32,000 nucleotides of DNA from Candidatus Saccharimonadota bacterium (GCA_963718045.1 OY970350.1:1-32000), one strand, 5' to 3'; numbered from the stretch's first letter, positions 3,862 through 21,275 are shown. Notes: a model not told the origin generated them from the sequence alone. Program-made: numbers and translations.

Positions 3862-3903
3862 CTTGATATATAATACCAACTTATCAAAAGATTGGCCTGC
3901 TGT

Positions 3904-3913: not shown

Positions 3914-3936
3914 CGGTGTAATTAAAGAAAGTATTT

Positions 3937-4950: not shown

Positions 4951-5415
4951 TTCCCGGCTTTTTAGTTTTTCAAACATTATTTTTCGCAAGAAAAAGCTCC
5001 ATAGCATTACTACTAGGATAGCGACCACTTCACCAATTAAATACTTAAGATGGAATTTGGAGACACATATCCAGAGAACTAATTCATTAATACCTAGCCC
5101 TGCTACACCAATGGCTGTAAATATCGTTAACTCAAGCTTAAAGAACTTACTTCTTGAAAATATCCATAAAACACTTAGAAGGTAATTGACTAAAGTAGCT
5201 ACTATAAACGCAATGAGTTCTGAGAATAAATAGTTGACACCTACCAGCGAGGTAAATACATATAAAAGAACTAGATTAACGACCGCCGAAAATCCTCCGA
5301 CAAATAAATACCTAACAAACTGCACTAAGCCATGATTAGTTCGTTTTTCAACAAAAAGTTTATTGACTAGGCTGGAGAAAGAATCGGCGTTAAATAATTT
5401 ATAAACTCTATCCAT
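4942..5415 (-). CDS. GtrA-family membrane protein (putative polyprenyl-phosphate-sugar flippase)
   Basis: Small protein with four predicted TM helices and the GtrA-type opening LVQFVRYLFVGGFSAVVNLVLLYVF. The ORF-track start at 5433 is GTG (13-nt overlap with the upstream gene); the ATG at 5415 is preferred, but the start is uncertain. The 3' end overlaps convergent galE by 9 nt. Confidence 0.75.
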   Translation of the reverse strand: MDRVYKLFNADSFSSLVNKLFVEKRTNHGLVQFVRYLFVGGFSAVVNLVLLYVFTSLVGVNYLFSELIAFIVATLVNYLLSVLWIFSRSKFFKLELTIFTAIGVAGLGINELVLWICVSKFHLKYLIGEVVAILVVMLWSFFLRKIMFEKLKSRESI

Positions 5416-5420
5416 ATTAT

Positions 5421-6464
5421 TTAAGATACCCACTTAAGAACACGAATCACTCCAAGTTTGGCAGCTTGCTTATGGGCTGATACATCCTTACGATTTTTAA
5501 TATCATCAAGATTATTGTGATAGTATTTATAAGCTTTCAGAAGCATGTCTTTATTATTTAGTGTTGGAGCCCATGATAATTCTTTTTTGATTCTTGTAGT
5601 ATCAAAAGTAAAGCTTTCGGCAATCATTTTATACTGATAAGGGCCAAGCGGTGATAACTTTAAAGCATAAGCTAACTTCATAAGCGGTATTGCAATCTCC
5701 CTTGGGAAGTTTGCTACCCGAGCTTTACTGCCAGATTTCTTAATCACATAATCATAGGCTTCTTTAAAGGTTGGCACGTCATCTGAACCAATATTCATAA
5801 CCATTGTCTTGTTATAATCTAAAGCTTTAAGGCAAGCATTTATTAAGTCTTTGGCATAAATGAATTGATAACGATTATCGCCGCCGCCGACAACCCAGAC
5901 TTTGCGATCTTCATCGATAAACTCGAATAAAATTGCTAGTAAGCCAAGACGACCAGAATCAATAATTGTCGGGCATCTAAATATAACACTATTAAAATCT
6001 TTATTATGTTTTAAGAGAATTTTTTCACCTTCCCACTTGGACTTACCATAGATTTCAACTGGCTCAGGTTTATCATCTTCAGTTACTGGTCGGTTAAAAT
6101 TTTTAGCCCACAAGCAATTGGAAGAAGTGAAAATAACTTTTTTGATGCCATACTCTTTAGCAAGTTCGGCGATGTTTTCTGTACCATCAACATTACTGGT
6201 CCATAGAAAATTTTTATCTTTTACCGCATGTGCTAGTATTGCCGCAATATGAAATATGGCATCGAATTTGTACTTCTTGGCTAGATCTTCCAGGGTTGCC
6301 ATGTTTCTTATGTCACCCTTTATACTAACTAAATTTTTGTGCTTATAAATGTCATTTTCTAGGTCAATCGACACACACTTAAAATTCCTGTTCAGAAGTT
6401 CGATTTTTAGCAATTCACCAAAAAATCCGGCACCACCTGTTAACAATACTGTCTTCGAGCTCAT
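5421..6464 (-). CDS. NAD-dependent epimerase/dehydratase (extended SDR)
   Basis: VLLTGGAGFFG Rossmann motif, FTSSNC and catalytic IYGKSKWEGE (YxxxK). Substrate not assignable from sequence. Confidence 0.8.
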   Translation of the reverse strand: MSSKTVLLTGGAGFFGELLKIELLNRNFKCVSIDLENDIYKHKNLVSIKGDIRNMATLEDLAKKYKFDAIFHIAAILAHAVKDKNFLWTSNVDGTENIAELAKEYGIKKVIFTSSNCLWAKNFNRPVTEDDKPEPVEIYGKSKWEGEKILLKHNKDFNSVIFRCPTIIDSGRLGLLAILFEFIDEDRKVWVVGGGDNRYQFIYAKDLINACLKALDYNKTMVMNIGSDDVPTFKEAYDYVIKKSGSKARVANFPREIAIPLMKLAYALKLSPLGPYQYKMIAESFTFDTTRIKKELSWAPTLNNKDMLLKAYKYYHNNLDDIKNRKDVSAHKQAAKLGVIRVLKWVS

Positions 6465-6511
6465 TTTCTACATTATACATTATCAAAACTATTATCGTTT
6501 CTAAAGAGTTC

Positions 6512-6521
6512 TTGATATAAT
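6512..6521 (+). promoter_or_regulatory. Candidate extended -10 promoter (TTGATATAAT) for the FAD-oxidoreductase/GT-C operon
   Basis: Exact TTGATATAAT ends 14 nt before the ATG at 6536 and there is no Shine-Dalgarno between, implying a very short leader. Confidence 0.4.
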
Positions 6522-6535
6522 GCATACTTGATAAT

Positions 6536-8143
6536 ATGAAGTCTGGAAAACAAACTGCGATTATTATTGGCGCTGGACCTGCTGGATTAACCGCAGCTTA
6601 TGAGCTACTCCACAAGACCGATATTAAGCCTATTGTCTATGAAGCAACCAATGATATAGGCGGTATTTCGAAGACTGTCAATTATAAGGGTAACAGAATT
6701 GATATTGGAGGGCATAGATTTTTTTCTAAGTCAGACCGTGTGATGGAGTGGTGGAATAATATATTGCCAATTCAAAAAGCTCCAAGTAATGTGTCTTTCA
6801 ACTTGAAATTTCAGGATAAATCAAGATTACTGATTGGCAGTGAGAAAGGTGTAGACCCAGATAAGACGGATGAGGTCATGCTTATTCGAAGCCGATTAAG
6901 TCGCATATACTACCTAGGTAAGTTCTTTAATTATCCAGTAACTTTGGAGCCTTCTACGATAAAAAATCTGGGTATGTGGCGAATCACCAAAATGGGGATA
7001 AGCTACATTAAGATTCGCATTAAACCTTGTAAAGAAGTATCGCTGGAAGATTTTTATATAAACCGCTTTGGTCGGGAATTATACAATACATTCTTTAGGG
7101 ATTACACTGAAAAAGTCTGGGGCGTACCCTGCTCCCAGATAGCTCCCGACTGGGGAGCGCAGCGGGTTAAGGGTTTATCGGTCACAAAGGCTATTACTCA
7201 CGCAATAAAGTCTACAATACCTAAACGTAAAAATTCCGATATTTCTCAAAAGGGTACAGAAACCAGTCTTATTGAATATTTTCTATACCCAAAGCTAGGC
7301 CCGGGCCAAATGTGGGAAACGGTTACCAAGATTGTCAAGAAAATGGGTGGCGAGGTTCATTTAAATCACGAAATAGTTAAAGTTCATGTCAAGAACAATA
7401 AAATTTCTGGTGTAACAGTAAGAGAGTATAAAACAGGTAAAACATCGTTAGTTGAAGGCGACTACTTCTTCTCTACTATGCCGGTCAAAGATCTGATTAA
7501 TGCTATTGATGGCGTTAAAGTACCTAGTAATACTAAAAGGGTTGCTAATGGCTTGCCGTATCGTGATTTTATAACAGTCGGGCTTTTGCTTAATAAACTC
7601 AAAATTAGCAACCAAACGGGACGAAAGACCAAGAATAATGTCGTACCTGATAACTGGATTTATATTCAAGAGCCAGGTGTTAAAGTTGGACGTTTACAGA
7701 TATTCAATAACTGGAGCCCCTATCTATTAAAGGACGAGGACAAGGTCTGGATCGGGATGGAGTACTTCGTTAACGAAGGTGACGAATTATGGTCTATGAA
7801 AGACGAAGATATGACTAAGCTTGGTGTTGAAGAGTTATCTAGTATTGGAATTATTGATGAGAAAGATGTAGTTGATAGAACTGTAATAAGAGTAAAGAAA
7901 ACTTATCCAGCATATTTTGGTACTTACGGAGAATTTGATAAAGTCCGTAACTTTGTTGATGGTTTCCCCAATCTATTCTTGGTAGGTCGAAATGGAATGC
8001 ATCGCTATAATAATCAGGATCATTCCATGCTAACTGCTATGACAGCAGTAGAGAATATTATTGAGGGACGTAAAGATAAAGATAATATTTGGGATGTCAA
8101 TGTTGAAAAAGAATACCATGAAACTAAAAGCTCTGATAAATAA
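6536..8143 (+). CDS. FAD/NAD(P)-binding oxidoreductase (Rossmann GR2/amine-oxidase-like; UDP-galactopyranose-mutase/protoporphyrinogen-oxidase superfamily)
   Basis: N-terminal dinucleotide-binding motif [17 protein letters not shown]...[11 protein letters not shown]...IDIGGHRFF and a C-terminal [15 protein letters not shown] motif. Exact activity unknown. Confidence 0.7.
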
Positions 8144-9773
8144 AATCTCTACCTACACTAAAAATAATCGAATTCGCATATGGACAGTTTTCGTTACATC
8201 ATTAATCTTGATTTTGCTTTCCTTGGTCTTGGCTTATCATATAAGACCTTACAACAGTGACGATGTATCCTGGCAGAACGCACTGCTAACCTGGCATCCT
8301 TTTAAGCACCAAACGCTATATTTAACTCCTGACACATGGGTAGCAAATGTTCCATTCTACATGCTGTTCAGCCACATCCTTGCACCCGGAAGAAGGGTTC
8401 TGCTAGCCGAAGGAGGCTTTTTTGCGGTCCTAAATTTCACAATTTATTTTTGGTCGGGACTATATTTTATTAAAAAACAGCATCGTAAAATTGATCTACT
8501 CTACCTATTGCCATTTTTGTGGCTTGCCAGTTTTGGATTTGCTTTAGCCAATTTATTTCTTAATACAAACTTGCGAAGCTTCGAAATAGGTCTATCTATA
8601 TTACTATTTGTGGCTATAGCCAAAATTTATCATGAGGAATTTGATCCTATGAGATCTTGGCTAACAAGGTTGGCCACGCTATTGGGCTGTTTTCTAGTGG
8701 GTCTTCTTATATACAATGACCCCTATTTTCTTTATCTAATAGTTATACCCGCTATTTTGCTTCTAATTTATCTTTACTATAAAAATCGTAGTGCCAGGCG
8801 ATCAATTTTAATTATGGCTGCTTGTTTTGTAATATCTGGTGTGGCCTATGAGATAATTCATAAAATTGGGACTACGGCTGGAATAGTTATCATACCGCAA
8901 CCAGCTATATTTGTTGCTTATGGTCAACTATTTTCACAGGTCGCTACGGCCATACAAAGCGTCTTAATAATATTCGGAGCGGATATAACTGGAAGGGTCG
9001 TATTAAATTTTGTCACTATCGTTTATTTGCTTAATCTATTTTTGTTAGCAATTGTCTCTTTTCAAGTAGTAAAGAATCTACGATTACGTTTTACCGATAA
9101 GTCTCTGGAGAAGAACGACTCGCAACTTTGGATGAGCTTCTTAGCGTTTGTGATAGTTTTCGCTCTGGCTGTTTACACATTCAGCAACCAGGCTATTAAT
9201 ATAGAAACCTATCGCTATTTAATAATTGTACCGTTTGTAGCGGTTATCTTATTAAGTATGGGCATCGGTCAATGGAGCAAAACTTTACGGTCAATTATCA
9301 GCATAGTTTTGGTGATAAGCATAATCGGTAATATAAGTGTATCTGTAGCAACTGCTAAAGGGCATGACTTAATTTTGATAAGCAACACCGATAAGGGCAA
9401 CTATCAAAATTTTGATCTAATAAGAGCTTTGGAGGCTAAAGGACTTAGTAAGGGCTATGCTCAGTACTGGGACGCTAATATAAATGCCTATCTATCTAAG
9501 GGCAAATTAGTTATCTTACCTATAGTTTGTACTCCTAGTAATACTTCTGAGCCTTATGATTGGTTTATTAATGCAAGCCTACTAAAGAAACCATCGGCTA
9601 GAACATTTTTAATAACTGATATAGGCAACGTCCCATCAAGTCCTATGTGCAGCTCGGAATCGCTTAGCCTTCAATTTGGCACGTCCACAAGCAGTTTTAT
9701 GATAGATAGCTATAAGGTATACGTTTATAATTACGACATCGCTTCTAAAATGAGTTCTGTTGGTTTGGAGTAA
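8094..9773 (+). CDS. Polytopic membrane protein, GT-C-like (putative extracytoplasmic glycosyltransferase)
   Basis: About 11-13 hydrophobic helices. The first predicted external loop carries an acidic pair ([17 protein letters not shown]). A soluble tail of roughly 150 aa follows ([27 protein letters not shown]...), as in ArnT/PMT/YfhO-type enzymes. Start is ambiguous: TTG 8061, or ATG 8094, 8100 or 8118. Confidence 0.5.
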
Positions 9774-9781
9774 GCCACAAT

Positions 9782-11389
9782 ATGACTAAGAATAGTAATT
9801 GGCGGCGTTTGTTACTCATCCACTTACTGCCGTTGATTGCGTTCCTATTAATAGGAGCTAGTGTAGCTACTATTGCAGGTCAGGATCAAAACTGGGATTT
9901 GCATAATTACCATTACTACATACCTTATGCATTTATCCATCACAGAGAAAGCCGAGATTTTGCAGTTAGCGGTATCCAATCCTTTGCTAACCCATTACTC
10001 GACACTGTTTCTTATTCCTTAATCCAAAACTTTAGACCTATTGTAGCTAGTGCAATTTTAGGCGCTATTCAGTCGTTAAATGTTTGGATTATATATGAAC
10101 TAGCAATTTTGATTTTCTCCAGGTTTATAAAAAATAAGTGGTTATATGTTTTTGCATTTATAATCTCGGTACTTTCGTTTTTTGGAGCAGGTAATTTAGG
10201 GGAAGTCGGTGAGACAATGACCGACAACCTCGATAGCATACCTATTTTATTGAGTCTGTTAATGGTCTTAATGATAATAAAGAATAGGTATAGGTGTAGT
10301 CATAAAAAGATACTAACGCTCAAGTTCATTGCATACGGCGTCCTTGGTATAGCCGTCGGGCTAAAACTAACTGACATTATTTTTGCCGTGCCTTTAGTCT
10401 TCTTGGAAATATTTAATTATAAAAGTATGTGGAATTTTGTAAGACAGGGTCTTTGGGATGGGTTTTCTTTTCTGATTGGGATGTTTTTGAGCATCGGGCC
10501 GTGGAGTATTTACCTATATAGAACTTATAAGAGCCCTTTCTTCCCCATATATAATGCTATATTTCACTCTCCCTATTACAGCAACAGTAACTTTAACTCA
10601 CCGCAGTGGTTCCCACATGGGCTTATGCACATATTATTCTTCCCCTTTTATTTTCTATTCCACCCTAGCCTTACAGCAGAAACACATTTTACAGATCCTC
10701 GTATAGCCTTACTCCTAATAGTAATGATTGTATTCTTGGTCTTTTTAGTGATTCGCTATTTTACGCATTATTTTCACAGAATTAAAATTCCAAAAGAGGT
10801 CTTAGCCTTACTTAGCTTTGTCATAATCGGTTATGTACTATGGGAAAAATTTTTCGCTTACTACAGGTACCTAATGGTTCTTGAATTTCTGTCCATAACA
10901 ACCATAGCAGTCGTCATATGGATAATGATACCGAAGCGTAAGGTTGCTTTAGTAGTTTTGGCAACACTTATGGTGTTAGTCACGGTCATTACCAGGCCCA
11001 TGGACTGGACTAGAATCCCTTGGCAAAAGTCATTCTTTGGAGTACAAATACCACCTAACTTTGTTAAGCGAGATTCAGCCGTGTTGTTGGCTGGTAGCGT
11101 ACCCATCGGTTACTTAATACCTTTTTTCCCGCCGAGTATCTATGCTATTCGAGTAGAAGATCCATTACAGCCCACCCTAGAGTCATCTCCCGCCTCCCAA
11201 CGTCTTATAAGAAGTAAGATAGAGACTCTAGAAAAAGATGGCAGTAACTTCTATGGTGTAGAGACGCCAGGAGCTACGATTGACGTGGAATCATTTAAAC
11301 AATACGGGTTTGAAAATAGTACCTGTAAGACAATTACTTCAAATCAAGGTGGGGGCTATAGTATTTGTAAACTAGTTAAAATCAGCTGA
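9782..11389 (+). CDS. Polytopic membrane protein, GT-C-like (putative polyprenyl-phosphate-sugar-dependent glycosyltransferase)
   Basis: ATG at 9782, 8 nt after the upstream stop. Many TM helices. The first loop GQDQNWDLHNYHYYIPYAF...NPLLD is acidic/aromatic like catalytic loops of mannosyl/arabinosyl GT-C enzymes. A C-terminal soluble domain of roughly 120 aa follows. Confidence 0.5.
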   Translation: MTKNSNWRRLLLIHLLPLIAFLLIGASVATIAGQDQNWDLHNYHYYIPYAFIHHRESRDFAVSGIQSFANPLLDTVSYSLIQNFRPIVASAILGAIQSLNVWIIYELAILIFSRFIKNKWLYVFAFIISVLSFFGAGNLGEVGETMTDNLDSIPILLSLLMVLMIIKNRYRCSHKKILTLKFIAYGVLGIAVGLKLTDIIFAVPLVFLEIFNYKSMWNFVRQGLWDGFSFLIGMFLSIGPWSIYLYRTYKSPFFPIYNAIFHSPYYSNSNFNSPQWFPHGLMHILFFPFYFLFHPSLTAETHFTDPRIALLLIVMIVFLVFLVIRYFTHYFHRIKIPKEVLALLSFVIIGYVLWEKFFAYYRYLMVLEFLSITTIAVVIWIMIPKRKVALVVLATLMVLVTVITRPMDWTRIPWQKSFFGVQIPPNFVKRDSAVLLAGSVPIGYLIPFFPPSIYAIRVEDPLQPTLESSPASQRLIRSKIETLEKDGSNFYGVETPGATIDVESFKQYGFENSTCKTITSNQGGGYSICKLVKIS

Positions 11390-11549: not shown

Positions 11550-12122
11550 ATGGCACGTAAATCTAAAAAACCTTTTAAAGTCTGGTTAATACCATTGGTA
11601 GCTATAGTGGTCATAGTTATATTGGTTTTATATTACTTTGCGCATCATAACAGTAAAGCTAATACAGGTTTAACTAATAGCACAAAACAAACCATTAAAT
11701 CAGCTGAATCTAGTCCTTCTTCTCAACCATCGTCGACATCTATGCCTGGTGCATCCAAATCTTTAAATACCGGGGGCAGTATTAATGAGAATGGCCAGGC
11801 TGTAAGTAATCTGCCCCCATCATCAGACTGGGCAACATCTTCTTCTGGTGCTATAACACTTCAGGAGCCAACAGTAAACACCGTATTATCTAACGGCGAT
11901 ACAATAACGGGACTAGCCAATGTAAGTAACATTAGTTTTATATTATCTAACAGTTCAGTCGGGCTAATTGACCAGGGCAATTTAAGCGTTGTGAATGGCC
12001 GGTTCACTGGGAAATTGGACTTTACTTCAACTTCTAAATTAGGGACACTGCAGGTGTACTACCCAAATCCTACAAATGGCGCGGAAGAAGATATGGTGGA
12101 GATAGATGTTAGCTTTAATTAA
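11550..12122 (+). CDS. Membrane-anchored surface protein with Ser/Thr-rich linker and C-terminal Ig-like (Gmad2-type) domain
   Basis: N-terminal basic stretch plus one TM helix (VWLIPLVAIVVIVILVLYYFA), then a low-complexity SSPSSQPSSTS linker. The C-terminal roughly 90 aa (ITLQEPTVNTVLSNGDTITGLANVSN...GRFTGKLDF...GTLQVYYPNPTNGAEEDMVEIDVSF) follows the Gmad2 Ig-like pattern. Confidence 0.6.
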   Translation: MARKSKKPFKVWLIPLVAIVVIVILVLYYFAHHNSKANTGLTNSTKQTIKSAESSPSSQPSSTSMPGASKSLNTGGSINENGQAVSNLPPSSDWATSSSGAITLQEPTVNTVLSNGDTITGLANVSNISFILSNSSVGLIDQGNLSVVNGRFTGKLDFTSTSKLGTLQVYYPNPTNGAEEDMVEIDVSFN

Positions 12123-14367
12123 GAAGATTAATGCACGTAGATCAATAACAGTAGCAGTATTTGTGTTTTGTCTATTGTTTACATCCATTTTTATATTTAA
12201 AGGCAACACCCATGCGTTCACAGTCAATTACAACCCTAGCAACTTAATAGACAATGGTACCTTACTTAACAACAGTGCGATGAGTGAGGGTGCTATTCAA
12301 ATTTTCTTAACGAATGTTGGTAGCGGTTTAGCTAGCGTTCAAGATGTTGAGGCATGTGATTCAACAATAGCACCTTATTATACTCACTGTAGTCAAACCA
12401 TTTCAGCTGCCCAAATTATTTATGATGCAGCACAGGCTTATGGAGTCAACCCTGAGGCTATACTTGCTACCCTTCAGAAGGAACAAAGTCTCGTTACACA
12501 ACCCGCACCTCCCCCTAGCGATAGTACGGCAGTTGCTAGCTATCAGGCAGCCTTAAATTGCGCTATGGGGTACAACTCTTGCAATGATTACGTTGGCTTC
12601 TTCACTCAGGTTGATAATGGTGCTTGGACTTTAGTCTACAATACTGAAGCAGCTATGCAGGTAGCAAACTGGATGGGTTGGTTACCTGCTACCAATTATC
12701 GTTGTTCAAAAGCAGGTTATATTGATAATGGCACGGTCCAGGTATATTCTACAGGGCTTTATCCAGGTAACACAGTTACATTTGATGATCCGGGTGGAAC
12801 TGCAGAAACAGTCACTTTGGCAAACGCAGCCACAGCTTCTTTATACTGTTATACCCCTTATGTAGGACCTTATAGTGAGACTGGTTATTCTGGGAGTTAT
12901 AACTTTGTTTACTATTTCCAGCTTTGGTTTGGCAACACTCAATCATCTACTGCTTACGCCTGGGATTATGAAGGTCAAGGTGAGTACACTAATGACGGAT
13001 ATTCTGATCCGTTTACAAACGGTCTTTACACAGCTCCCGGACAAACGGCCTATTTGTCAGTAACGGCACGTAATGTCGGTTATGATACCTGGCAACAATC
13101 TGTAGTCCATCTTGGCACGTCTCACCCAGAAGATAGAGATAGCGTATTCACCAATGATAGCTGGCTGTCACCAACGAGAATTGCGATGCAACAAAGCAGT
13201 GTTATACCCGGAGCAGATGCTACTTTTGAGTTTTCTATAACAGCACCCTTAACAACGGGTACTTACTATGAATACTTCAATCTTGTCGCAGACGGTATAA
13301 CTTGGATGGATGATCCGGGCCTATACTTCACTATAAACGTAGTTCAACCACAAACACCAACAAATAATACTAATACTGGGTTACAGCCTGGGCAAACTCT
13401 AAGTATTAGGCAACATCTTTTGTCTCCAGATACTCAAAGTACATTGGCTCTACAGCCAGATGGTGATGTCATTTTAACAAGTGGCGGTCAGGTAACTTGG
13501 AGCAATAGTATAAATAACTCAAATGCCAACAGTCTCATAATGCAATATGATGGGAATTTAGTTGAATATGACAGCAATGGTCGGCCTGTTTGGTCGTCAG
13601 GCACGGGTGGTAATACCGGGGACTCGTTAGCACTACAAATTGATGGGAATTTAGTTATATATAGCTCGAGTGGCTCGCCACTTTGGTCTACTAATACTGG
13701 GAGCAACCCATATTATACGGATAAGGTAGACAGTTTCATCCAACCTGGAGCAGTTATCTTTCCTGGTCAAATATTACAAACAGCTAATAGAGATTACTCA
13801 CTCATAATGCAATATGATGGGAATTTAGTTGAATATAACAGCAATGGTCGGCCCATTTGGTCCTCAGGCACGGGCGGTAATACCGGTGATACGTTGGTTA
13901 TGCAAAATGATGGGAATTTAGTAATTTACAGTTGGCAAGGTATACCTATTTGGTCCTCAGGCACGGGCGGCCTTCCTGATAGCTACTTTACTTTGCAGCC
14001 AGATGGTTCTTTAACAGTCGCAACACCTAACGATGATTCTATTTTGTTGGTAAACTCTAGCCTACAAGATGTCCAAACCATGTTCACGCCGGGGCTAAGT
14101 TACTCGCTAGTTATGCAAAATGATGGGAATTTAGTTATATATGACAGCAATGGTCGGCCCATTTGGTCCTCAGGCACGGGCGGTAATACCGGTGATACGT
14201 TGGTTATGCAAAATGATGGGAATTTAGTAATTTACAGTTGGCAAGGTATACCTATTTGGTCCTCAGGCACGAGCAGTAATAAAAATGATAGCTTGGTACT
14301 GGAAAATAACGGCAATTTAGTTATATACAACATGTCTGGTCGGGCAATATGGAATTCAAACACTTAA
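12106..14367 (+). CDS. Secreted multidomain protein: signal peptide, N-terminal Cys-containing domain with SLT/lysozyme-like motif, Ig-like module, three tandem bulb-type (MMBL, beta-prism II) lectin domains
   Basis: ATG at 12106 follows GGTGGAG (12095-12101) and overlaps the upstream gene by 17 nt. Signal peptide with a likely THA|FT cleavage site. There are six canonical QxDxNxVxY lectin motifs (13543, 13636, 13810, 13903, 14116, 14209) and three degenerate ones. Confidence 0.85.
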   Translation: MLALIKKINARRSITVAVFVFCLLFTSIFIFKGNTHAFTVNYNPSNLIDNGTLLNNSAMSEGAIQIFLTNVGSGLASVQDVEACDSTIAPYYTHCSQTISAAQIIYDAAQAYGVNPEAILATLQKEQSLVTQPAPPPSDSTAVASYQAALNCAMGYNSCNDYVGFFTQVDNGAWTLVYNTEAAMQVANWMGWLPATNYRCSKAGYIDNGTVQVYSTGLYPGNTVTFDDPGGTAETVTLANAATASLYCYTPYVGPYSETGYSGSYNFVYYFQLWFGNTQSSTAYAWDYEGQGEYTNDGYSDPFTNGLYTAPGQTAYLSVTARNVGYDTWQQSVVHLGTSHPEDRDSVFTNDSWLSPTRIAMQQSSVIPGADATFEFSITAPLTTGTYYEYFNLVADGITWMDDPGLYFTINVVQPQTPTNNTNTGLQPGQTLSIRQHLLSPDTQSTLALQPDGDVILTSGGQVTWSNSINNSNANSLIMQYDGNLVEYDSNGRPVWSSGTGGNTGDSLALQIDGNLVIYSSSGSPLWSTNTGSNPYYTDKVDSFIQPGAVIFPGQILQTANRDYSLIMQYDGNLVEYNSNGRPIWSSGTGGNTGDTLVMQNDGNLVIYSWQGIPIWSSGTGGLPDSYFTLQPDGSLTVATPNDDSILLVNSSLQDVQTMFTPGLSYSLVMQNDGNLVIYDSNGRPIWSSGTGGNTGDTLVMQNDGNLVIYSWQGIPIWSSGTSSNKNDSLVLENNGNLVIYNMSGRAIWNSNT
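13838..13965 (+). repeat. Intragenic direct repeat, copy 1 (128 bp, identical to 14144-14271)
   Basis: By-eye alignment shows 13838-13965 is base-for-base identical to 14144-14271. The offset is 306 nt (102 codons, in frame). It encodes NGRPIWSSGTGGNTGDTLVMQNDGNLVIYSWQGIPIWSSGT. Confidence 0.9.
14144..14271 (+). repeat. Intragenic direct repeat, copy 2 (128 bp, identical to 13838-13965)
   Basis: See copy 1. Flanks diverge immediately at both ends (A/G at 13837/14143, G/A at 13966/14272). Confidence 0.9.
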
Positions 14368-14397: not shown

Positions 14398-15690
14398 CTA
14401 ATATAAATCGTTAATAATCTTCGTCAATTGATCAAAAGTATCTCGCCAACTTGTTGGCTTATATTTGTCCCTTATATCGGCTTCTAGTTGAGATCTAAGT
14501 TTACCATCAGTCAGTCTTAGCATTTGTTCTAAAAAGGCAGACGGATCATATGGTGAGGCATATATACAAAATTCCTTCCCAACTTCTGTCATAGACGATG
14601 TATCGCTACTAATACAGCACTTGCCATAATTTAATGATTCAGCTACTGGCAACCCCCAGCCTTCATAAAATGACGGGAAAACGGTGTACAGACAGTTTTG
14701 ATATAGCCAGGCTAATTCCGTGTCTTTTATGGATGTACATATGGTAATGTTTTTATTAATCTTGGGGTCTTCTGTTAGTAAAGTGAAGGCTTCTTCTGCC
14801 ATCCAACCCTTACGCCCAACAATGACTAGATGAGGAAGCTTGATGCCTTTTTGAAATGCTAAGTTGTATACATAGTAAAAAAGCAGGTAGTTTTTGCGTA
14901 TCTCAATTGTACTAACAGATAGTATAAACTCTTTGGGTATATTAATTTTGGGGGATAATGTTCGCTGCCCGTTTGTTAATCTAATATCTGTCCCAAGTGT
15001 TATAGTCGGCAATATTGGTTTGTTACTAATATTATTCACTTCAAGAAACCACTCAATATCGTGTTTAGTTGATTCAGATATTGCGGGCAATGCATCTGCA
15101 ACTTTAAAGATCTTCTTAAAGTAACTACCAATAATCTTATTGGCACCCTTGTTGGCTAAAGCCGGATTGTTGTATGCTATAAGATCCTGGACAACGTGAA
15201 CTAGCTTAAAGTCGATTTTTTGTTTATCGGCAATTATCTTTTCTGCATATCCATAGAACTGCCAATTCCCATCGACGACAACTACTACATCATCCTTACT
15301 GAACAGTGGTTTTATAACATGGGCGGGTAGGCTCCTAGCATTCCTATACAACGACCTTATTGTGTTGTATGTACCTCTAAGCTGAGGCTCAATTGATAGA
15401 CCCCTAGCTACTTTTTTAGATGTAACGAGTGTATAATAAAGAACTTTTTGTGGCTTTAATTTGCTAATAAAGGGCTCTTTGGAAATGGTAGTTTTAGTCT
15501 GTTTTCTTTGCTCCAAACCAGCTTTTAAATCGCTGAACTTAAGTTCGGTAAAGACGCCGTGATAAACAAACAGCCCATAATCCAGACCTGAATTATCAAG
15601 TTCTTCGGCAATATTAAAATTCACCCTTTGAATGCCAGTAAAGTTACCTTGCCAATGAGCTAATCCTGATACATCAAGCCATATTTTCAT
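14398..15690 (-). CDS. Glycosyltransferase family 4 (group 1)
   Basis: ATGA start/stop overlap with the upstream gene. Typical N-terminus MKIWLDVSGL...GIQRV and C-terminal signature FPSFYEGWGLPVAESLNYGKCCISSDTSSMTEVG. Confidence 0.8.
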   Translation of the reverse strand: MKIWLDVSGLAHWQGNFTGIQRVNFNIAEELDNSGLDYGLFVYHGVFTELKFSDLKAGLEQRKQTKTTISKEPFISKLKPQKVLYYTLVTSKKVARGLSIEPQLRGTYNTIRSLYRNARSLPAHVIKPLFSKDDVVVVVDGNWQFYGYAEKIIADKQKIDFKLVHVVQDLIAYNNPALANKGANKIIGSYFKKIFKVADALPAISESTKHDIEWFLEVNNISNKPILPTITLGTDIRLTNGQRTLSPKINIPKEFILSVSTIEIRKNYLLFYYVYNLAFQKGIKLPHLVIVGRKGWMAEEAFTLLTEDPKINKNITICTSIKDTELAWLYQNCLYTVFPSFYEGWGLPVAESLNYGKCCISSDTSSMTEVGKEFCIYASPYDPSAFLEQMLRLTDGKLRSQLEADIRDKYKPTSWRDTFDQLTKIINDLY

Positions 15691-17942
15691 TGATTTTCCT
15701 TTAGCTCTTTAGATATCAGGCTAGCATATTTCTTAAATGAATACTCACTAGCCAAAAACTTACGGGCAGCCTGACCTATTGTATCTCGACTTTTTGGATC
15801 GTTGATTAAGTCACTAACCTTTTTAATTAGTTCATGCTCGCTACTCACTTTTACTACACACTCGTCCGGCAGTTCAGCAAACCACCCAATATCTCTAACA
15901 ATAACCACCGTACCCCAGCGCATGGCTTCTAGGGCGCTACGAGAAGTTTCACCGTGATATTTAAGTCTGTAGTTAATTAGTATGTCGCTGCCACCTAAAG
16001 CGTCTTGGAACTCTTTGTCGGTCAGGTCCTTAATTACTTCAATGTTGGTAGCCAGATTTTCAAGTAGTGGACTTTCGCCAAGTACACCAAACCCAAAAAC
16101 CTTAACTTTGATGTTGCTAAGTTCAGCTATATTAGCAACGAGACTTATGCCTTTGTCTTCGGATATAATTCCGGCAAAACTAACTGTTATGCCATCACGG
16201 ACCGGAGTATTCTTCGGTACTCCTATCGGATGAAATATTTGGTTAATATTTAAGTTGGTCGATATCTCTTCTATGGACTGGCAAGAATACCCGGAATGGC
16301 AGAAAATAGCCTTTTGGTTAGTCACAATACTGGAAAGACAGCTAGATTTTTTATTAGCTAATTTTGTGTCAATTAACGATTCGTAGAGCCGACGCTTCTT
16401 TGTTAAGTAGCCGTAGCGCTCCATATAATCGAATATGCCGTTAAGCCAGGTATCATGAACAATGGCATTAGCTGGATAGCGCAGAGCACTTAATATAGTC
16501 TGGGTATGGAATTCGCTATTGCCAATGTGATAGAGCACGCGGTCATATTTGTCTTTATTTCGCTCAAAAAAAGCTACTGGGTAGTATTTGGTGGCATACT
16601 CTAAAATATTAGGCCGTGACGGTTCGAATTCAGTTTGGCCGTTTTCATAATAATAGTCGATGTCGTAGAGCCTGGACAGCTCGGCGTGCACCTCAAAGGC
16701 ATATTTACCCACCGCTGAGTAGGAAGACGGCGAAGGACAAAATATAGCCAGCTTTGCTCTTTTGTTTGCCTGCTCTATACGTTTCAATGCTCCCATAAAC
16801 AGAGAAGCGGTATTGTTCCAGGTAAACTTAGCTTTTATCTCTTGGTAGCGCTTTATAAAATGGGTTTGATCGCTTTTAGAATGATCACTCAGAATTGATC
16901 TAAGTATGGTTGTCATGCTGGTGATGGATTTAGGATCAAAAAAGGAAAAGGCATCAGTGCTAATTTCTCTAAATACCGGGATATTAGAACAGGCTACTTG
17001 GGTGTTTCTATTCACTGCCTCGAGTATAGGCAAGCCCAGTCCTTCATACTCGCTCGGGAAAAATACTAGACGTGTATTATCTATGAGCCAGAGTAGTTCG
17101 CTGCTAGATACGCTACCAGAAAATATAATATCCGGGTATATACCCTTAAGCTGGCGCTGAGTTTCTTGGCTAAAATTAGAAGTTACGACTAGCTGATTAC
17201 TGCCCTTCAGTTCGGCAAAGGCTCTAACAGCCAGCTCATTATTCTTCCGGAAATCGTCACCGCTCGGCATAAGAACAAAATCGTTGTTTAAGCCGTCTAT
17301 TTTGGGTTTGCTAGGTTTAGTCTTGTCTGTGTGCGCACCGGCACCAAAGATGGGTGCTGTTCTTATAGGATCAATACCAAAATATATCGTTAGGTCATCG
17401 GCGGTTGTCTCAGAGTCCGTTACATACAGATCGGCTTTATAGGCCTCCGCCCATCGTTGGGAGTAGTCTATGCGAGCGCTACTCTCGTGATCACGGAAGT
17501 ATTGTTTGGGGTATAAAAAAGGTATTATATCGTGAAATTGGAGAAGGTTGGCTGTGCCCTTGCTCGGAAATACTGGGTATATTTCACTGCTAAAAAGAGC
17601 TGGTATAAAAAAGACTGTTTTGGTAGATTGACCTTTGTTTACTATTAGACTATCGATGGTAGCCTTATTGGCTTTTACGGCCTGGCCATAAAGCTCGCAG
17701 TTCTTTTTAGCCAGTAATTTAGCTTTTAGGACATCTCCTCTAAAACCGCTGAGTATTGCTGCGTCTTTTTCGGATAGGTCAGGCAGTTGGCTGTTAGTGA
17801 TAAAAGTCCACTGTACGCCGGGTTCGTTTTGGGTAGAAAGAGCTTCAAGGAGGTTCTGTAAATACAGCCCCATACCGCGGTAACGGTCACTGGTTTGCAG
17901 TAACTGGCAATCAAATATGACATGTAGATGGTTGCCTGGCAT
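15687..17942 (-). CDS. Two-domain glycosyltransferase (tandem GT4-like GT-B modules), candidate chain-extending polymerase
   Basis: 751 aa. The first module has FFPSEYEGLGLPILEAVNRNTQVACSNIPVFREI (EX7E). The second has YHGETSRSALEAMRWGTVVIVRDIGWFAEL (EX7E). TAATG overlap with the upstream methyltransferase gene. Confidence 0.75.
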   Translation of the reverse strand: MPGNHLHVIFDCQLLQTSDRYRGMGLYLQNLLEALSTQNEPGVQWTFITNSQLPDLSEKDAAILSGFRGDVLKAKLLAKKNCELYGQAVKANKATIDSLIVNKGQSTKTVFFIPALFSSEIYPVFPSKGTANLLQFHDIIPFLYPKQYFRDHESSARIDYSQRWAEAYKADLYVTDSETTADDLTIYFGIDPIRTAPIFGAGAHTDKTKPSKPKIDGLNNDFVLMPSGDDFRKNNELAVRAFAELKGSNQLVVTSNFSQETQRQLKGIYPDIIFSGSVSSSELLWLIDNTRLVFFPSEYEGLGLPILEAVNRNTQVACSNIPVFREISTDAFSFFDPKSITSMTTILRSILSDHSKSDQTHFIKRYQEIKAKFTWNNTASLFMGALKRIEQANKRAKLAIFCPSPSSYSAVGKYAFEVHAELSRLYDIDYYYENGQTEFEPSRPNILEYATKYYPVAFFERNKDKYDRVLYHIGNSEFHTQTILSALRYPANAIVHDTWLNGIFDYMERYGYLTKKRRLYESLIDTKLANKKSSCLSSIVTNQKAIFCHSGYSCQSIEEISTNLNINQIFHPIGVPKNTPVRDGITVSFAGIISEDKGISLVANIAELSNIKVKVFGFGVLGESPLLENLATNIEVIKDLTDKEFQDALGGSDILINYRLKYHGETSRSALEAMRWGTVVIVRDIGWFAELPDECVVKVSSEHELIKKVSDLINDPKSRDTIGQAARKFLASEYSFKKYASLISKELKENQ

Positions 17943-19054
17943 TAGTTGGCCACCATTTTTTTAAGGATTTTACTCATTAAGCCGTACACCTTTGAGGTCA
18001 ATTTCCAAAAAAAGAGCTTAAAATAACTTCTAAACAGAGTTTTTGTCTCTTTGATATTTTGATTATCCCGATTATGAATAAAAGCCAACATTTCTTCTTT
18101 TGAAATCTTTTCGCCATTAAGTACACTTGTAAGCTTTGGGTCATTTTGATATTTCAATCCCCTTAGTTGTTTGAAGCCATTCGCCCGTCTATTAAGTCTG
18201 GCCTGTATTTCTGTGTTTAATCGCCGGACAAGGAATTTGACATCCCTTTGTTGCTTTTGCAAAAATATTATTTCTTGTTCTTGATCAGATATTTTGTTGA
18301 GTATTATTTTTTCTCGCTCTTTTACGATTTTCTCGGTCTCTTTTTTCGCGTCTTGTTTAATTTCTTGTTCGGCCAAAAAATACACGGGGGTTCCCGACAG
18401 TACTGCATTAGGGTAATTAAAGTATTTTTTTCTATTTAGCGATTCTTTGGCCAAATAGTATTTATTAACGCCATCATAAAATACTTCGTTATAATCATAA
18501 TCTTTAAGCAGTGGTTGCCAGTCCCTGTGTATATGGCTGGTTTCAATGCAAATTAGTTCAGGACGAACATTTTTAAAGTCATAGCCTGCCAATACTTTAT
18601 ACTCATACCCCTCCACATCTATCTTTAGAAAGTGCACGTGTTCAACCTCATGTTCATTAAACACTTCCCCGAGACTCTCGACTAGGACTTTGTAATCTTT
18701 GCTCTTCCGTGTCGGGTAGTTATTTTTAGAATTTTTGTAGACGGCTCTCATCGATTTGTCAAAAGTTGATAGACCGTCTTCTCCGGGATACTCAGTGAAC
18801 AATAGTTCTTCTTTTTTCTCGCCAATACCAATACACAGATTTTTGTCTCGAGGTCTCTGTTTATTGAGGTTGTCTATGTGTTTTTTAATAGGATCGATAT
18901 TTATACCATGCCAACCTTCATCATAAAATAGCTTGGTGACAGAGTCGATCACTGGGTCATTGGCACCAACGTCAATGTAAAACCCATTGTTAACATCAGA
19001 GAAAAAAGACTTAATAAGCAAGTCTTCTCTATTTTGCGAATAATAAAATCGCAT
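17942..19054 (-). CDS. FkbM-family SAM methyltransferase fused to a coiled-coil and a C-terminal amphipathic helix (candidate chain terminator)
   Basis: FkbM motifs FYIDVGANDPVIDSV and FLKIDVEGYEYKVLAG within aa 1-215. Heptad-rich, charged aa 228-292 (nt 18179-18373). C-terminal FRSYFKLFFWKLTSKVYGLMSKILKKM (nt 17951-18040). GAGGA lies 9 nt upstream of the ATG. Confidence 0.75.
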   Translation of the reverse strand: MRFYYSQNREDLLIKSFFSDVNNGFYIDVGANDPVIDSVTKLFYDEGWHGINIDPIKKHIDNLNKQRPRDKNLCIGIGEKKEELLFTEYPGEDGLSTFDKSMRAVYKNSKNNYPTRKSKDYKVLVESLGEVFNEHEVEHVHFLKIDVEGYEYKVLAGYDFKNVRPELICIETSHIHRDWQPLLKDYDYNEVFYDGVNKYYLAKESLNRKKYFNYPNAVLSGTPVYFLAEQEIKQDAKKETEKIVKEREKIILNKISDQEQEIIFLQKQQRDVKFLVRRLNTEIQARLNRRANGFKQLRGLKYQNDPKLTSVLNGEKISKEEMLAFIHNRDNQNIKETKTLFRSYFKLFFWKLTSKVYGLMSKILKKMVAN

Positions 19055-19056
19055 TA

Positions 19057-20082
19057 TTAGATTTCCTCTTCTATATGAACGTGCGATAGTTTATGCTTAG
19101 AGAAAACTAGGAATGTTAAAGACTCTGTAGTGCTAATTACCTGTCCATATTCCGTATTTTCTAGGTGTCTTAACTGCCCGTCTGGCATAATACTGTATAC
19201 AAACTCAAAGTCAGATATAAGTTGGGCGTAGAATTTTTGAGGGTTTTCATATCCACCTTTTGTAAACTCCATAAAAAGTATTAAATTTGGGCTCTCTTTT
19301 ACTATTCTCCTCATACCTTCATATGCAGTTTCTTCATACCCCTCAATGTCCATTTTTATAAGGTCAATCTTTTTAATCTTATTCATCTTACAATAACTAT
19401 CTAGGTCAATAGTTGGCACAGTCACAGTACTTTCAGCCTCAACGTTCATTTGGTGTCCGTTGTAACTCATAAGTCGCTCGATTGACTGCATTGATGATGA
19501 GCCAATATAATCTTTAAGTATATTCAACTTAGAAGTACCTTTTTTGTTACTGAGCGCCGTGTTTTCTACAATAGTATTTTCGTTCAACCAATTAACAGAA
19601 AGGGTTTTATGTATATAGTGATGAAGATTGGGATTGGCTTCAAATAGTATTACTTTGCCACGTTTTCTGTTCATCTGAGCGGCAAATACGCTGTAGTAGC
19701 CAAAATTTGCTCCTATATCAACAACTACCGGATCTGGGCGAACGTCCTTTTCTAGTGTAGCAAGCCAAGCATATGTAATCTCCCTCTCCCATATACGTTC
19801 AAGGGCTATATGCGGTACCACGGCTATATCATAGGGGTCTAGATACATGATAAGGTCGTTGAAGAGTTTAACTGCAATCTCCCTCTCTGAAATAGGCATT
19901 ATGCCCACTGTGTCATATCTGCCCATCCTATCTTGTACATCTGAGAGTTTTTTAACATCTTTGCGCAAAGCTTCTGTAGCCGTCTCAAGTCCTACTAGTC
20001 TTTTAAATGCATTGCCCGTCATCTTATTGGCTACCGCTTGGTAAACACTTTTACTGTTCTTCACTAGAATCCTCTTCTCCAT
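19057..20082 (-). CDS. FkbM-family SAM methyltransferase with N-terminal extension
   Basis: VVVDIGANFGYYSVFAAQ and LIKMDIEGYEETAYEGM motifs. Start is ambiguous: in-frame ATGs at 20166 (116-nt overlap with wzt), 20082 (32-nt overlap) and 20022 (no overlap). None has a clear SD. Confidence 0.7.
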   Translation of the reverse strand: MEKRILVKNSKSVYQAVANKMTGNAFKRLVGLETATEALRKDVKKLSDVQDRMGRYDTVGIMPISEREIAVKLFNDLIMYLDPYDIAVVPHIALERIWEREITYAWLATLEKDVRPDPVVVDIGANFGYYSVFAAQMNRKRGKVILFEANPNLHHYIHKTLSVNWLNENTIVENTALSNKKGTSKLNILKDYIGSSSMQSIERLMSYNGHQMNVEAESTVTVPTIDLDSYCKMNKIKKIDLIKMDIEGYEETAYEGMRRIVKESPNLILFMEFTKGGYENPQKFYAQLISDFEFVYSIMPDGQLRHLENTEYGQVISTTESLTFLVFSKHKLSHVHIEEEI

Positions 20083-21274
20083 GTTTAGTCTTGAGTACGA
20101 CTGACATGGGCGGCATGATCGCAGTAGTTGATCGTTCAATTCTTTTAACAACGAATGAGGCAGCATTACTATACCAATCCAGGGGAGTATGCGATCCGTC
20201 TACCAATGTGAGCGTAACAAAATACCTGCCATCACTAAAAATGTTTAAAACTTCCCATTCTAATCGCACTGTTTCTGACTTTTTCAGCTCAATTATGTCT
20301 GGTTTGTTGACCATTCGGTTGTTTGTAGCGACAATTTCTTTGCCATCAACACCTGATATATGAATTCCATACTGAATTAATTCGAAATCTTTTGTCTTTG
20401 CAGTCACATCAGCCTGAACATATACATGATCATCCTTCGTGATAACTTTGACTTTATCGTATTTAGCATCGCCAGTTCCCCAGCGCTGCGACTGAGAAGA
20501 ATTACCACTCTCTGTTTCTGCTTGATTATCTATAAATAGGAGAGAGTATTCCTTAGCAACATCCCCGGATAAACCACTTGCCTTGAGTCGGGCGTCATCT
20601 ATAAGCACTGCTCGATCACAAAACTCACGCACTGCGTCCATATCATGGCTCACAAAAACAACTGTTTTTTTATTCTTCTTTAGGGTCTGGAAATATTCAA
20701 AACACTTCCGTTGAAAGTCGGCATCACCAACTGCGAGCACCTCATCGACTAGCAATATATCTGCCTTGGCTCTTGTTGCCATTGAAAACGCTAAACGCAC
20801 TTGCATGCCCGATGAATAGTTTTTTAGCTTCTGGTCCATGAATCGTTCAAGTTCAGCAAATGAAACTATTTCATCGTACATTGCTTCGACCTCATCACTA
20901 GAAAATCCCAACATTGCACCATTTAAATAAACATTGTCCCGACCCGATAACTCTGGATTGAATCCTACGCCTAATTCTATAAAAGGTACCAGCTTACCTA
21001 TTGTGGTTACATTACCTTTTGTTGGTTGGTAAATAGATGCTAGCAATTTGAGAAGTGTGGTTTTCCCACTTCCATTTCTGCCAACGATACCAAAAAATTC
21101 ACCTTTTTTTATTTCGAAAGATATGTCTTTAAGGGCGTGTTGCTTCTCCTTAATCCTCGTAGCTTTATTAAACATACTGGTAAATATGCCTTTTACACTC
21201 CCCACCCTTTCGTGAGGTAAAATAAAGTCTTTATAGACATTTTCAACCCTAATTACAATTTCATCATTTTCCAT
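20051..21274 (-). CDS. wzt: Polysaccharide ABC exporter ATP-binding protein with C-terminal Wzt_C-like carbohydrate-binding extension
   Basis: Walker A GRNGSGKTTLLK, signature YSSGMQVRLAFS and Walker B ILLVDEVLAVGD are present. An extra roughly 150 aa follows the NBD (RWGTGDAKYDKVKV...FVTLTLVDGS...). The ORF-track start at 21292 is TTG. The ATG at 21274 follows a perfect AGGAGG (21281-21286) and sits 1 nt after the wzm stop, so it is preferred. Confidence 0.85.
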   Translation of the reverse strand: MENDEIVIRVENVYKDFILPHERVGSVKGIFTSMFNKATRIKEKQHALKDISFEIKKGEFFGIVGRNGSGKTTLLKLLASIYQPTKGNVTTIGKLVPFIELGVGFNPELSGRDNVYLNGAMLGFSSDEVEAMYDEIVSFAELERFMDQKLKNYSSGMQVRLAFSMATRAKADILLVDEVLAVGDADFQRKCFEYFQTLKKNKKTVVFVSHDMDAVREFCDRAVLIDDARLKASGLSGDVAKEYSLLFIDNQAETESGNSSQSQRWGTGDAKYDKVKVITKDDHVYVQADVTAKTKDFELIQYGIHISGVDGKEIVATNNRMVNKPDIIELKKSETVRLEWEVLNIFSDGRYFVTLTLVDGSHTPLDWYSNAASFVVKRIERSTTAIMPPMSVVLKTKHGEEDSSEEQ

Positions 21275-21275
21275 A

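Follow-up and report, generated by a model that had tools for sequence, protein, structure and literature searches.

A secreted lectin-tailed protein in a surface-glycan locus of Saccharimonadales, a candidate wall glycosidase from an unnamed Patescibacteria family

Introduction

Why should a bacterium place the gene for a secreted protein with a tail of bulb-type lectin domains inside the locus that is predicted to build its own D-rhamnose/mannose surface glycan? The question is raised by a 32,000-nucleotide stretch of DNA from a Candidatus Saccharimonadota bacterium (GCA_963718045.1 OY970350.1:1-32000), the whole of which is referred to here as the window, in which a gene at 12106-14367 on the + strand encodes a product of 753 amino acids (aa) that ends in three tandem domains of the monocot mannose-binding lectin (MMBL) type. 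A first-pass annotation of the window had described a signal peptide, a cysteine-containing N-terminal domain (the head), an immunoglobulin (Ig)-like module and the lectin triplet, had called the head possibly muralytic, and had offered two hypotheses for the lectins, namely (a) that they anchor the protein on the cell's own rhamnan or mannan and (b) that they direct it to the glycans of another cell.

A large part of bacterial diversity belongs to the Patescibacteria, or Candidate Phyla Radiation (CPR), most of whose surface proteins have no annotation. Here we describe the lectin protein, the family to which its head belongs, a coupled partner gene, and the setting in which the pair is found. 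We propose, tentatively and with a little less than even confidence, that the product is a Sec-secreted, GH73-like wall glycosidase of Saccharimonadales (TM7) that is held by its lectins on the cell's own rhamnan/mannan. The MMBL lectins, the GH73-like fold, glycan loci like that of the Pseudomonas common polysaccharide antigen (CPA), and the principle of joining a wall enzyme to a polymer-binding module are known already; the head family, its lectin tail, the coupled Gmad2 partner, and the fixed glycan-locus position in a CPR lineage are new.

Results

Domain layout and lectin tail

The lectin gene starts with an ATG that is preceded at 8-9 nucleotides (nt) by GGAG, and the closest homologues of its product are from Candidatus Saccharimonadales metagenome-assembled genomes; a protein identical to it is also recorded from a 764-kb contig. 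Residues 1-37 (12106-12216) read as a Sec-type signal peptide with predicted cleavage after THA: the N-terminus, MLALIKKINARRSITVAVFVFCLLFTSIFIFKGNTHA|FTV, is divided into n-, h-, and c-regions like such peptides when judged by eye, and the homologues have equivalent N-termini. A lipoprotein anchor was considered and ruled out, as the N-terminus, read from the sequence, has no lipobox. The mature protein opens with the head (aa 38-282, 12217-12951), which has cysteines at residues 84, 95, 152, 159, 200, and 248 and carries the segment AAQAYGVNPEAILATLQKEQSL (aa 108-129, nt 12427-12492), and continues with an Ig-like module of the NBR1/FW type (aa 284-415, 12955-13350). The Pfam model N_BRCA1_IG (PF16158) matches the latter at aa 310-398, its E-value being 1.1e-4 and its score of 23.1 bits lying below the cutoff of 28, and it matches orthologues and other family members above the cutoff, with E-values down to 2.5e-23. 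Every coordinate in the first-pass annotation proved correct, including those of the open reading frame (ORF), the motif segment in the head, and the six canonical and three degenerate lectin sites, and its domain layout was borne out by the Pfam and PDB sequence searches.

The remainder of the protein is occupied by the lectin domains, all encoded on the + strand. Domain 1 (aa 416-541, 13351-13728) has a degenerate site, QPDGDVIL (13453), and then the canonical sites QYDGNLVEY and QIDGNLVIY (beginning at 13543 and 13636); domain 2 (aa 542-650, 13729-14055) has the canonical QYDGNLVEY and QNDGNLVIY (13810 and 13903) and then the degenerate QPDGSLTV (13996); and domain 3 (aa 651-753, 14056-14364) has QNDGNLVIY twice (14116 and 14209) and then the degenerate ENNGNLVIY (14302). 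By an estimate from average residue frequencies, about 2e-4 Q.D.N.V.Y motifs would be expected by chance per 753 aa. The Pfam model B_lectin (PF01453) matches seven stretches of the protein (E = 1.5e-22, 80.5 bits against a cutoff of 32.4), the best match among PDB sequences is putidacin L1 (3m7h, 3.7e-23, aa 416-639), and Scilla, Narcissus, garlic, and further bulb lectins are also matched, in the range of 1e-13 to 1e-23; the tail is made of three tandem beta-prism II domains, as had been read from the motifs. In an alignment of 37 homologues (39-60% identity), the residues of the Q/D/N/V/Y sites and of the Trp triad either do not vary (Q480, D482, N484, W465, W496, and W527 among them) or are at least 90% conserved (W585, W616, and W687), and the sites are therefore under selection. 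By analogy with LlpA and pyocin L1, and from the covariation with sugar genes described below, their ligand would be a D-rhamnose/mannose polymer.

Tandem MMBL domains with QxDxNxVxY sites are shared with the bacteriocins LlpA, putidacin L1, and pyocin L1, and this group provides the best match in NCBIfam as well as among the PDB sequences. LlpA-type proteins bind the D-rhamnose of CPA, a polymer produced by a Gmd/Rmd/Wzm/Wzt locus similar to that of the window (PMC3916391, PMC6240691), and a C-terminal peptide and BamA are reported to be central to LlpA killing (PMC6240691; bioRxiv 10.64898/2026.09.25.754295). Whereas LlpA has two MMBL domains with mostly degenerate sites in the N-domain, the window protein has three with six intact sites; LlpA residues 242-276, the BamA-targeting C-terminal peptide, have no counterpart in the window protein, which ends with its third MMBL domain and has no C-terminal extension; 415 extra N-terminal residues, the head and the Ig-like module, stand before the lectins; and the window gene lies inside the producer's own rhamnan locus in a presumably monoderm CPR organism. 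The LlpA model NF033557 (LLB_putidacin) scores 239.6 bits, below its cutoff of 275, and an identity as an LlpA bacteriocin was rejected on this score, the missing peptide, and the extra head and Ig-like module, so that the analogy drawn in the first-pass annotation stands for the lectin domain and not for the protein as a whole. A bacterial MMBL fused to a wall-binding or enzymatic domain is also seen in Mycobacterium smegmatis MSL (LysM-MMBL, 4oit) and in the MMBL-containing secreted esterase 9oee (PDB matches of 1.3e-13 and 1.1e-8, respectively), which differ in their partner domains and have a single lectin domain or another arrangement; we know of no link between either protein and a glycan locus.

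Lectin-only proteins were encountered in a scan of genome contigs with a lectin-motif pattern, which they swamped, leaving about 14 useful loci. Those closest to the triplet (33-45% identity) are proteins with MMBL domains in tandem, mostly from Actinomycetota, including Kitasatospora, Streptomyces, Amycolatopsis, Cellulomonas, and Rathayibacter, with Myxococcales and Bacteroidota also present (L012, L014-L024, L026-L029, L031-L047, L049, L050, and L052-L082). Actinomycetota is the phylum of the hosts of cultivated Saccharibacteria.

The head family

A profile built from the head alone matches 5,399 cluster representatives at 50% identity (E <= 1e-3; 3,308 at 1e-30), of which the best 150 were listed individually, and the family is found mostly in Patescibacteria. 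Its members carry a wide choice of C-terminal modules, including NBR1-type Ig (1-4 copies), NPCBM_assoc, CARDB, FG-GAP, DUF5648, DUF4832, dockerin, tectonin, ricin, DUF346, ChW, LGFP repeats, and B_lectin, and one member has a D-Ala-D-Ala carboxypeptidase. A head that is conserved and looks catalytic, joined to swappable tails that bind carbohydrates or the wall, is how cell-wall hydrolases are usually built. Among the best 150 of the 5,399, three proteins of 824-1,116 aa (P0217-P0219) have three or four tandem copies of the head. The combination of head, Ig-like module, and MMBL domains occurs in more than 100 clusters, whose proteins are 600-940 aa long and have between two and five lectin domains, and its records have no functional name, being called almost always 'hypothetical protein' where they are named. 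In the open-access literature we found neither the architecture nor the head family nor the gene pair described.

Sequence searches did not identify the head. There was no Pfam match at E <= 1 for the window head or for the heads of 85 + 79 family members, no NCBIfam, PHROG, or PDB sequence match (phmmer for the latter), and no match at E <= 10 when the head profile was compared with PDB sequences. A tblastn search against 50,697 phage records also gave no match, and there is therefore no evidence of an endolysin origin. When the head profile (alignment A3) was compared by hhalign with an FlgJ GH73 profile (A6), which was made from a homologue search with Escherichia coli FlgJ and is narrow, only close FlgJ relatives being among the matches listed, the probability was 0.15%. 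The sole aligned segment pairs AAQAYGVNPEAILATL with ASQQSGVPHHLILAQA, and a gapless extension of this non-significant segment brings E126 into line with the catalytic Glu in the ALESGWG of FlgJ; we do not take the alignment as proof of homology and use it for the register of this short segment only.

K125, E126, Q168, and Y249 are invariant in the head-family alignments, and Q124, Y247, T250, and P251 are nearly so. The pair Lys125-Glu126 of the LQKEQSL motif (12478-12483, +) is unchanged in alignments A1, A3, A5, and A7; the Glu of LQKEQS that had been singled out as putatively catalytic is thus invariant across the family, and its position is the C-terminal end of the helix coming after G-V-N-P. 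The motif Y247-x-Y249-T-P251 (in ATASLYCYTPY; 12844-12858, +), in which Y249 is invariant and Y247, T250, and P251 are invariant or nearly so, may be the counterpart of the GH73 active-site Tyr.

AlphaFold2 modeled the window head confidently, with a predicted local distance difference test (pLDDT) of 89.2 and a predicted template modeling score (pTM) of 0.86, and a Foldseek search of this model against the PDB and viral models gave no significant E-value, with almost only GH73 glucosaminidases and GH23/g-type lysozymes at the top. Because Saccharimonadales heads carry insertions, the head of a compact member, P0035 (191 aa, 39% identical), was modeled as well (pLDDT 94.7, pTM 0.90). The matches of this model were far clearer: it matched Staphylococcus aureus AtlE with a probability of 0.99, template modeling (TM) scores of 0.54/0.47, and a root-mean-square deviation (rmsd) of 5.3 Å over 196 columns; it also matched the Clostridium perfringens autolysin AcpCD (probability 0.99), LytB (TM score 0.50), and SagB (rmsd 4.0 Å over 134 columns), and matched MltC and g-type lysozyme more weakly than GH73 (TM scores 0.31-0.35, probability 0.41-0.54). 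An SLT/GH23 identity, which E-S, GLMQ, and AYNxG motifs or a Pfam SLT match would mark, was considered and placed behind GH73, the Pfam SLT model having no match, the motif being E-Q-S, and the fold matches being weaker than those to GH73. In all three Foldseek searches nearly every top match is a peptidoglycan glycosidase. On our reading of the models, the head is probably a very diverged lysozyme-superfamily domain, nearest to GH73 in fold, with a plausible catalytic Glu; the resemblance is one of fold and falls short of demonstrated homology. What had been called a possible muralytic head gains fold-level backing from the P0035 model (TM scores 0.47-0.54), as GH73 rather than SLT and with no link by sequence or profile.

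The GH73 autolysins (S. aureus AtlE, Atl, and SagB; Streptococcus pneumoniae LytB; C. perfringens Acp; Enterococcus faecalis AtlA) provide the best fold matches, appear to share the helix-loop-helix-Glu element, and likewise join a catalytic domain to wall-binding repeats (choline-binding in LytB, LysM in AtlA). They differ from the window head, which has no detectable sequence homology to them, reads E-Q-S where they read E-S-G-W-G, has an extra N-terminal subdomain and insertions, and is targeted by a lectin triplet. A reading of the protein as a non-catalytic surface adhesin, its head only binding or giving structure, would agree with the failure of sequence searches to assign the head to an enzymatic family; we regard this as highly improbable, since an invariant K-E pair, Gln, and Tyr on a GH73-like scaffold, across several hundred aligned sequences that stand for a family of thousands of clusters, form an active-site pattern.

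A coupled upstream partner gene

Directly upstream on the same strand lies a gene of 190 aa (11550-12122, +) that the first-pass annotation did not include and whose stop overlaps the start of the lectin gene by 17 nt. Its product begins with a K/R-rich stretch and a single transmembrane helix, from which a low-complexity linker rich in Ser, Thr, Pro, and Asn leads to a C-terminal domain of some 95 aa that is rich in beta structure. All 15 of the 15 MMBL-type homologues are likewise preceded on their strand by an ORF of 149-203 aa that has a transmembrane helix near its N-terminus and ends between -23 and +11 nt from the start of the downstream gene, and 11 of these 15 upstream ORFs are orthologous to the window partner by phmmer (1e-21 to 1e-52). 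Gmad2 (PF10648) is matched over its whole profile in six of seven partner orthologues, one of them above the cutoff (27.6 vs 25.7 bits); the window copy has no Pfam match at E <= 1. The pairing is obligatory and translationally coupled. A metagenome scan was also made with the head-only profile, and among 100 head-family loci that were analyzed, a coupled upstream ORF was present before 35. The C-termini of such paired members vary: one (L135:9905-11857) has five LGFP repeats, a wall-anchoring repeat of actinobacterial type, and others (L013, L092, L094, L115, L130, L133, and L139) have long repeated C-terminal regions without a Pfam match. The partner probably tethers or regulates the proposed hydrolase where the membrane meets the wall.

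A small, coupled, membrane-anchored protein with an exo-domain next to a lectin gene is also the typical layout of a toxin and its immunity factor, and the tandem MMBL part does score 239.6 bits against the putidacin L1 model. The pair could on these grounds be a kin-directed bacteriolysin whose lectins bind the D-rhamnan of competing Saccharibacteria, whose head lyses them, and whose membrane protein confers immunity, and competition between Saccharibacteria species has been documented (PMC11623550). We give this proposal a small chance. Its score is below the model's cutoff and the LlpA C-terminal peptide is absent; LlpAs are reported to need no immunity gene (PMC6465234); and the gene pair keeps its synteny and its vertical conservation throughout the order, with 37-68% identity, whereas bacteriocins are patchy. 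BamA and an outer membrane are not to be expected in the likely targets, as they are not in Saccharibacteria and their actinobacterial hosts in general.

Synteny and covariation with sugar genes

Lectin-type genes with 37-68% identity occupy the same place in related genomes, between membrane-protein genes and a GT4/Wzt/Wzm block, often with a divergent Rmd/Gmd pair after that block; the khpB-yidC continuation seen in the window recurs in one of these loci (L088). Such vertical conservation at a fixed position is what would be expected of a housekeeping envelope function. Wzm and Wzt lie within 10 kb of 20/30 paired head genes and of 1/27 unpaired ones (p = 4e-7), and beside eight of the nine lectin-type genes that have at least 5 kb of sequence on both sides. 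Among paired genes this adjacency is independent of the C-terminus (10/13 vs 9/14). The C-terminus does matter for the sugar genes: Gmd/Rmd stand beside 8/13 lectin-type genes and beside 1/14 genes with other C-termini (p = 0.004, a value that overstates independence in these related genomes). The proposed co-occurrence of homologues with gmd/rmd loci is therefore observed, and it runs in the direction that anchoring on the cell's own glycan predicts, with a module matched to the cell's own sugar chemistry. Of the two original hypotheses, (a) is favored by this covariation, and (b) is kept as a serious rival.

In that rival, the protein is a host-directed lectin-lysin or adhesin whose triplet binds mannose or rhamnose glycans in the wall of an actinobacterial host (lipomannan, lipoarabinomannan, or a rhamnose polysaccharide) and whose GH73-like head opens the host peptidoglycan locally for epibiont attachment or nutrient uptake. 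Cultivated Saccharibacteria are obligate epibionts of Actinobacteria, the lectin protein is secreted without a covalent anchor, and its closest lectin-only relatives are in Actinomycetota genomes. The binding of TM7x to its host is about halved by mannose and nearly abolished by rhamnose, the lectins responsible not having been identified (PMC11623550), and essential envelope proteins with glycan-binding domains have been proposed to target host glycans (PMC10633639). We consider the host-directed reading rather unlikely nonetheless. The gene is fixed in the producer's glycan locus and its lectin type covaries with the producer's gmd/rmd, whereas a determinant of host range would be expected to be more variable and not to track the producer's sugar genes; the rhamnose of PMC11623550 is L-rhamnose, whereas the product of Gmd/Rmd is D-rhamnose; and no homologue is shown here in cultivated oral strains.

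The glycan locus

The locus that surrounds the gene pair begins upstream with genes for GT4, PMM/PGM, a ManC-type GDP-mannose pyrophosphorylase, GalE, GtrA, a short-chain dehydrogenase/reductase, and a PRK07208-type FAD oxidoreductase, identified by family searches within 285-11389. Two proteins of 535-570 aa with multiple transmembrane segments are encoded at 8061-11389 on the + strand, with the partner and lectin genes next downstream on that strand; they have no Pfam or NCBIfam match, and L001 and L002 have syntenic equivalents. A possible role for them is that of extracytoplasmic glycosyltransferases of the GT-C type, with polyprenyl-phosphate sugars made by GtrA/GT2 as donors. The ORF at 8061 has a TTG start and overlaps the preceding gene by 83 nt, and its true start is probably further downstream.

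Beyond the lectin gene, a convergent glycan assembly and export operon on the - strand (14398-22082), assigned with Pfam, encodes a GT4 (14398-15690), a double-GT4 (15687-17942), two tandem FkbM methyltransferases (17942-20166), a Wzt ATPase with a Wzt_C domain (20051-21292; ABC_tran, and Wzt_C at 1.3e-12), and a Wzm permease (21276-22082; ABC2_membrane). The locus has four GT4 genes by Pfam, one of which carries two GT4 domains. Rmd follows at 22164-23090 on the + strand, its best PDB matches being two solved Rmd enzymes (2pk3, 5.9e-56; 6x3b, 2.7e-48), and Gmd at 23098-24096 on the - strand (PF16363, 3e-123; TIGR01472 at 389 bits, just below its cutoff of 415). Together, Gmd and Rmd, Wzm/Wzt with Wzt_C, methyltransferases, and GT4s make up a CPA-like, ABC-transporter-dependent pathway that looks complete, and such a gene set, as in Pseudomonas CPA and E. 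coli O8/O9a, belongs to a capped D-rhamnose/mannose homopolymer. The earlier claim of a GDP-D-rhamnose locus around the lectin gene is therefore well founded, the neighboring Gmd, Rmd, ManC, PMM, Wzm, and Wzt all having been found by the family or PDB searches. No initiating phosphoglycosyltransferase or ligase was recognized among the window ORFs of at least 100 aa in general scans, no search dedicated to them having been made.

The likeness to P. aeruginosa CPA and E. coli O8/O9a extends to Gmd, Rmd, a ManC-type enzyme, GT4s including a double-GT4, methyltransferases, Wzm, and Wzt with Wzt_C. In the CPA and O8/O9a pathways Wzt_C reads the capped chain end, and by analogy the FkbM pair and Wzt_C suggest that chain length is set by terminal methylation and recognition of the cap. 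The window organism differs in that it is expected to be monoderm, so that its polymer would be no lipopolysaccharide O-antigen, and in the gene pair for a secreted lectin-enzyme that is embedded in the locus.

The fixed position of that pair, with the glycosyltransferase-like membrane protein genes on one side and the GT4/Wzm/Wzt operon on the other, could also mark the head as an accessory enzyme of the glycan pathway that trims, releases, or transfers the locus product or an N-acetylhexosamine (HexNAc) linkage unit while the lectins bind the substrate. PslG, BcsZ, and AlgL, which are encoded in exopolysaccharide operons, offer a parallel; head genes of other Patescibacteria also lie beside polysaccharide genes, and general ORF scans showed no LCP-type ligase in the window. 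We think this improbable, given that lysozyme-like folds in general act on beta-1,4-HexNAc glycans and not on alpha-rhamnans or mannans, and that the head is common to loci that make different polymers, which points to a common substrate such as peptidoglycan.

The far end of the window

The G+C content of the window is 35-44%. Its far end carries rnpA, yidC, khpB/jag, dnaA, dnaN, and recF at 25.2-31.3 kb, and with this origin-type gene set the window, and with it the glycan locus, adjoins a replication origin. Beyond these genes (the whole block spanning 25261-31909) is a TraG/VirB4-type P-loop gene (31286-31909, -), a placement that fits the proximity of type IV secretion system (T4SS) genes to dnaA reported for Patescibacteria (PMC12102498).

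Discussion

Taken with the residue conservation and the models, these observations suggest how a lectin-anchored wall glycosidase might work. The head would be a diverged glycosidase of the lysozyme superfamily in which Glu126, at the end of a helix-GxNP-helix element, serves as the general acid; its substrate would be a beta-1,4-HexNAc glycan, most probably peptidoglycan, as fold and conserved residues indicate. The Ig-like module would act as a spacer, and the three lectin domains, with six intact QxDxNxVxY sites, as a multivalent wall-binding module of high avidity that holds the enzyme non-covalently on the D-rhamnose/mannose polymer built by Gmd/Rmd-ManC-GT4-FkbM and exported by Wzm/Wzt. 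The membrane-anchored Gmad2 partner would tether or regulate the enzyme. For such an arrangement SagB, one of the fold matches, sets a precedent in working with the membrane protein SpdC (6u0o), and the window head may act with its partner in a similar way.

The non-covalent display of a secreted enzyme on a secondary wall polymer, by way of repeated modules matched to that polymer, is familiar from SLH domains, which bind pyruvylated secondary wall polymers, choline-binding repeats, CWB2 on PSII, and LGFP repeats; LytB on choline teichoic acid is a parallel among autolysins, and SLH domains on secondary cell-wall polymers are another. The window protein would differ in that its module is a beta-prism II lectin and its presumed polymer a rhamnan/mannan. 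In the open-access literature searched, wall display by beta-prism II domains has not been described for CPR bacteria.

Several points weigh against this reading. No sequence or profile method used (Pfam, NCBIfam, PHROG, PDB, and hhalign) ties the head to GH73 or to any other glycosidase, the putative match between E126 and the GH73 Glu comes from a non-significant alignment, and the head motif is E-Q-S in place of the E-S of GH73 and GH23. The window's own head reaches TM scores of only 0.26-0.31 with its top Foldseek matches, and the E-values of the compact head are 0.045-0.1, never below 0.045. To our knowledge, D-rhamnose binding is known only in the proteobacterial LlpA family. The covariation statistic is drawn from related genomes whose cases are not independent events, and one lectin-type gene, L007, has neither Wzm/Wzt nor Gmd/Rmd within 10 kb. 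Head genes of other Patescibacteria, moreover, are near different polysaccharide genes and arrays of VirB2-like pilins, and in a Berkelbacteria-type locus (L085) rnpA and yidC are near an unpaired head gene; part of the linkage between heads and glycan genes may therefore be an old, inherited origin-proximal synteny. Locus L007 (JAJZNL010000001.1, a contig of 133.8 kb labeled 'Actinomycetes bacterium') has a partner of the Saccharimonadales type and a protein of 970 aa in which head and Ig are followed by five MMBL domains. The contig may come from an epibiont and have been mis-binned, or the synteny may truly be broken in this case.

Three Berkelbacteria-type loci (L084-L086) have recurring neighbors of the head gene, namely HSP20, a nucleotidyltransferase, a solute-binding protein, 4-6 genes for VirB2-like T4SS_pilin proteins, and a T2SSE ATPase. 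VirB1 is reported to be absent from most Patescibacteria that have VirB2 arrays (PMC12102498), and the wall hydrolase lacking beside these arrays could be supplied by the head family. A bolder form of the host-directed reading would make the head-Ig-lectin protein and its Gmad2 partner a surface-displayed device by which Saccharibacteria recognize rhamnose or mannose wall glycans of the actinobacterial host and breach the host peptidoglycan at the contact site. We hold this to be distinctly unlikely; if true, the head would be the first known of a family, spread across the CPR, of enzymes that open host walls and carry swappable targeting modules, and this family might include the 'missing' wall hydrolase of the Patescibacteria, in which T4SS/pilus loci mostly have no VirB1.

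For Saccharimonadales, the finding of a fixed two-gene module in a surface-glycan locus, with a lectin type that tracks the sugar genes, suggests that a monoderm CPR cell displays wall enzymes through lectin-glycan contacts. The lectin proteins are also candidates for the unidentified lectins of rhamnose- and mannose-sensitive host binding in Saccharibacteria (PMC11623550). For the family as a whole, the conserved residues and the predicted fold provide a first structural and functional handle on 5,399 clusters that have neither a name nor a Pfam or NCBIfam model, and, if the head is active, these would constitute a new family of peptidoglycan hydrolases.

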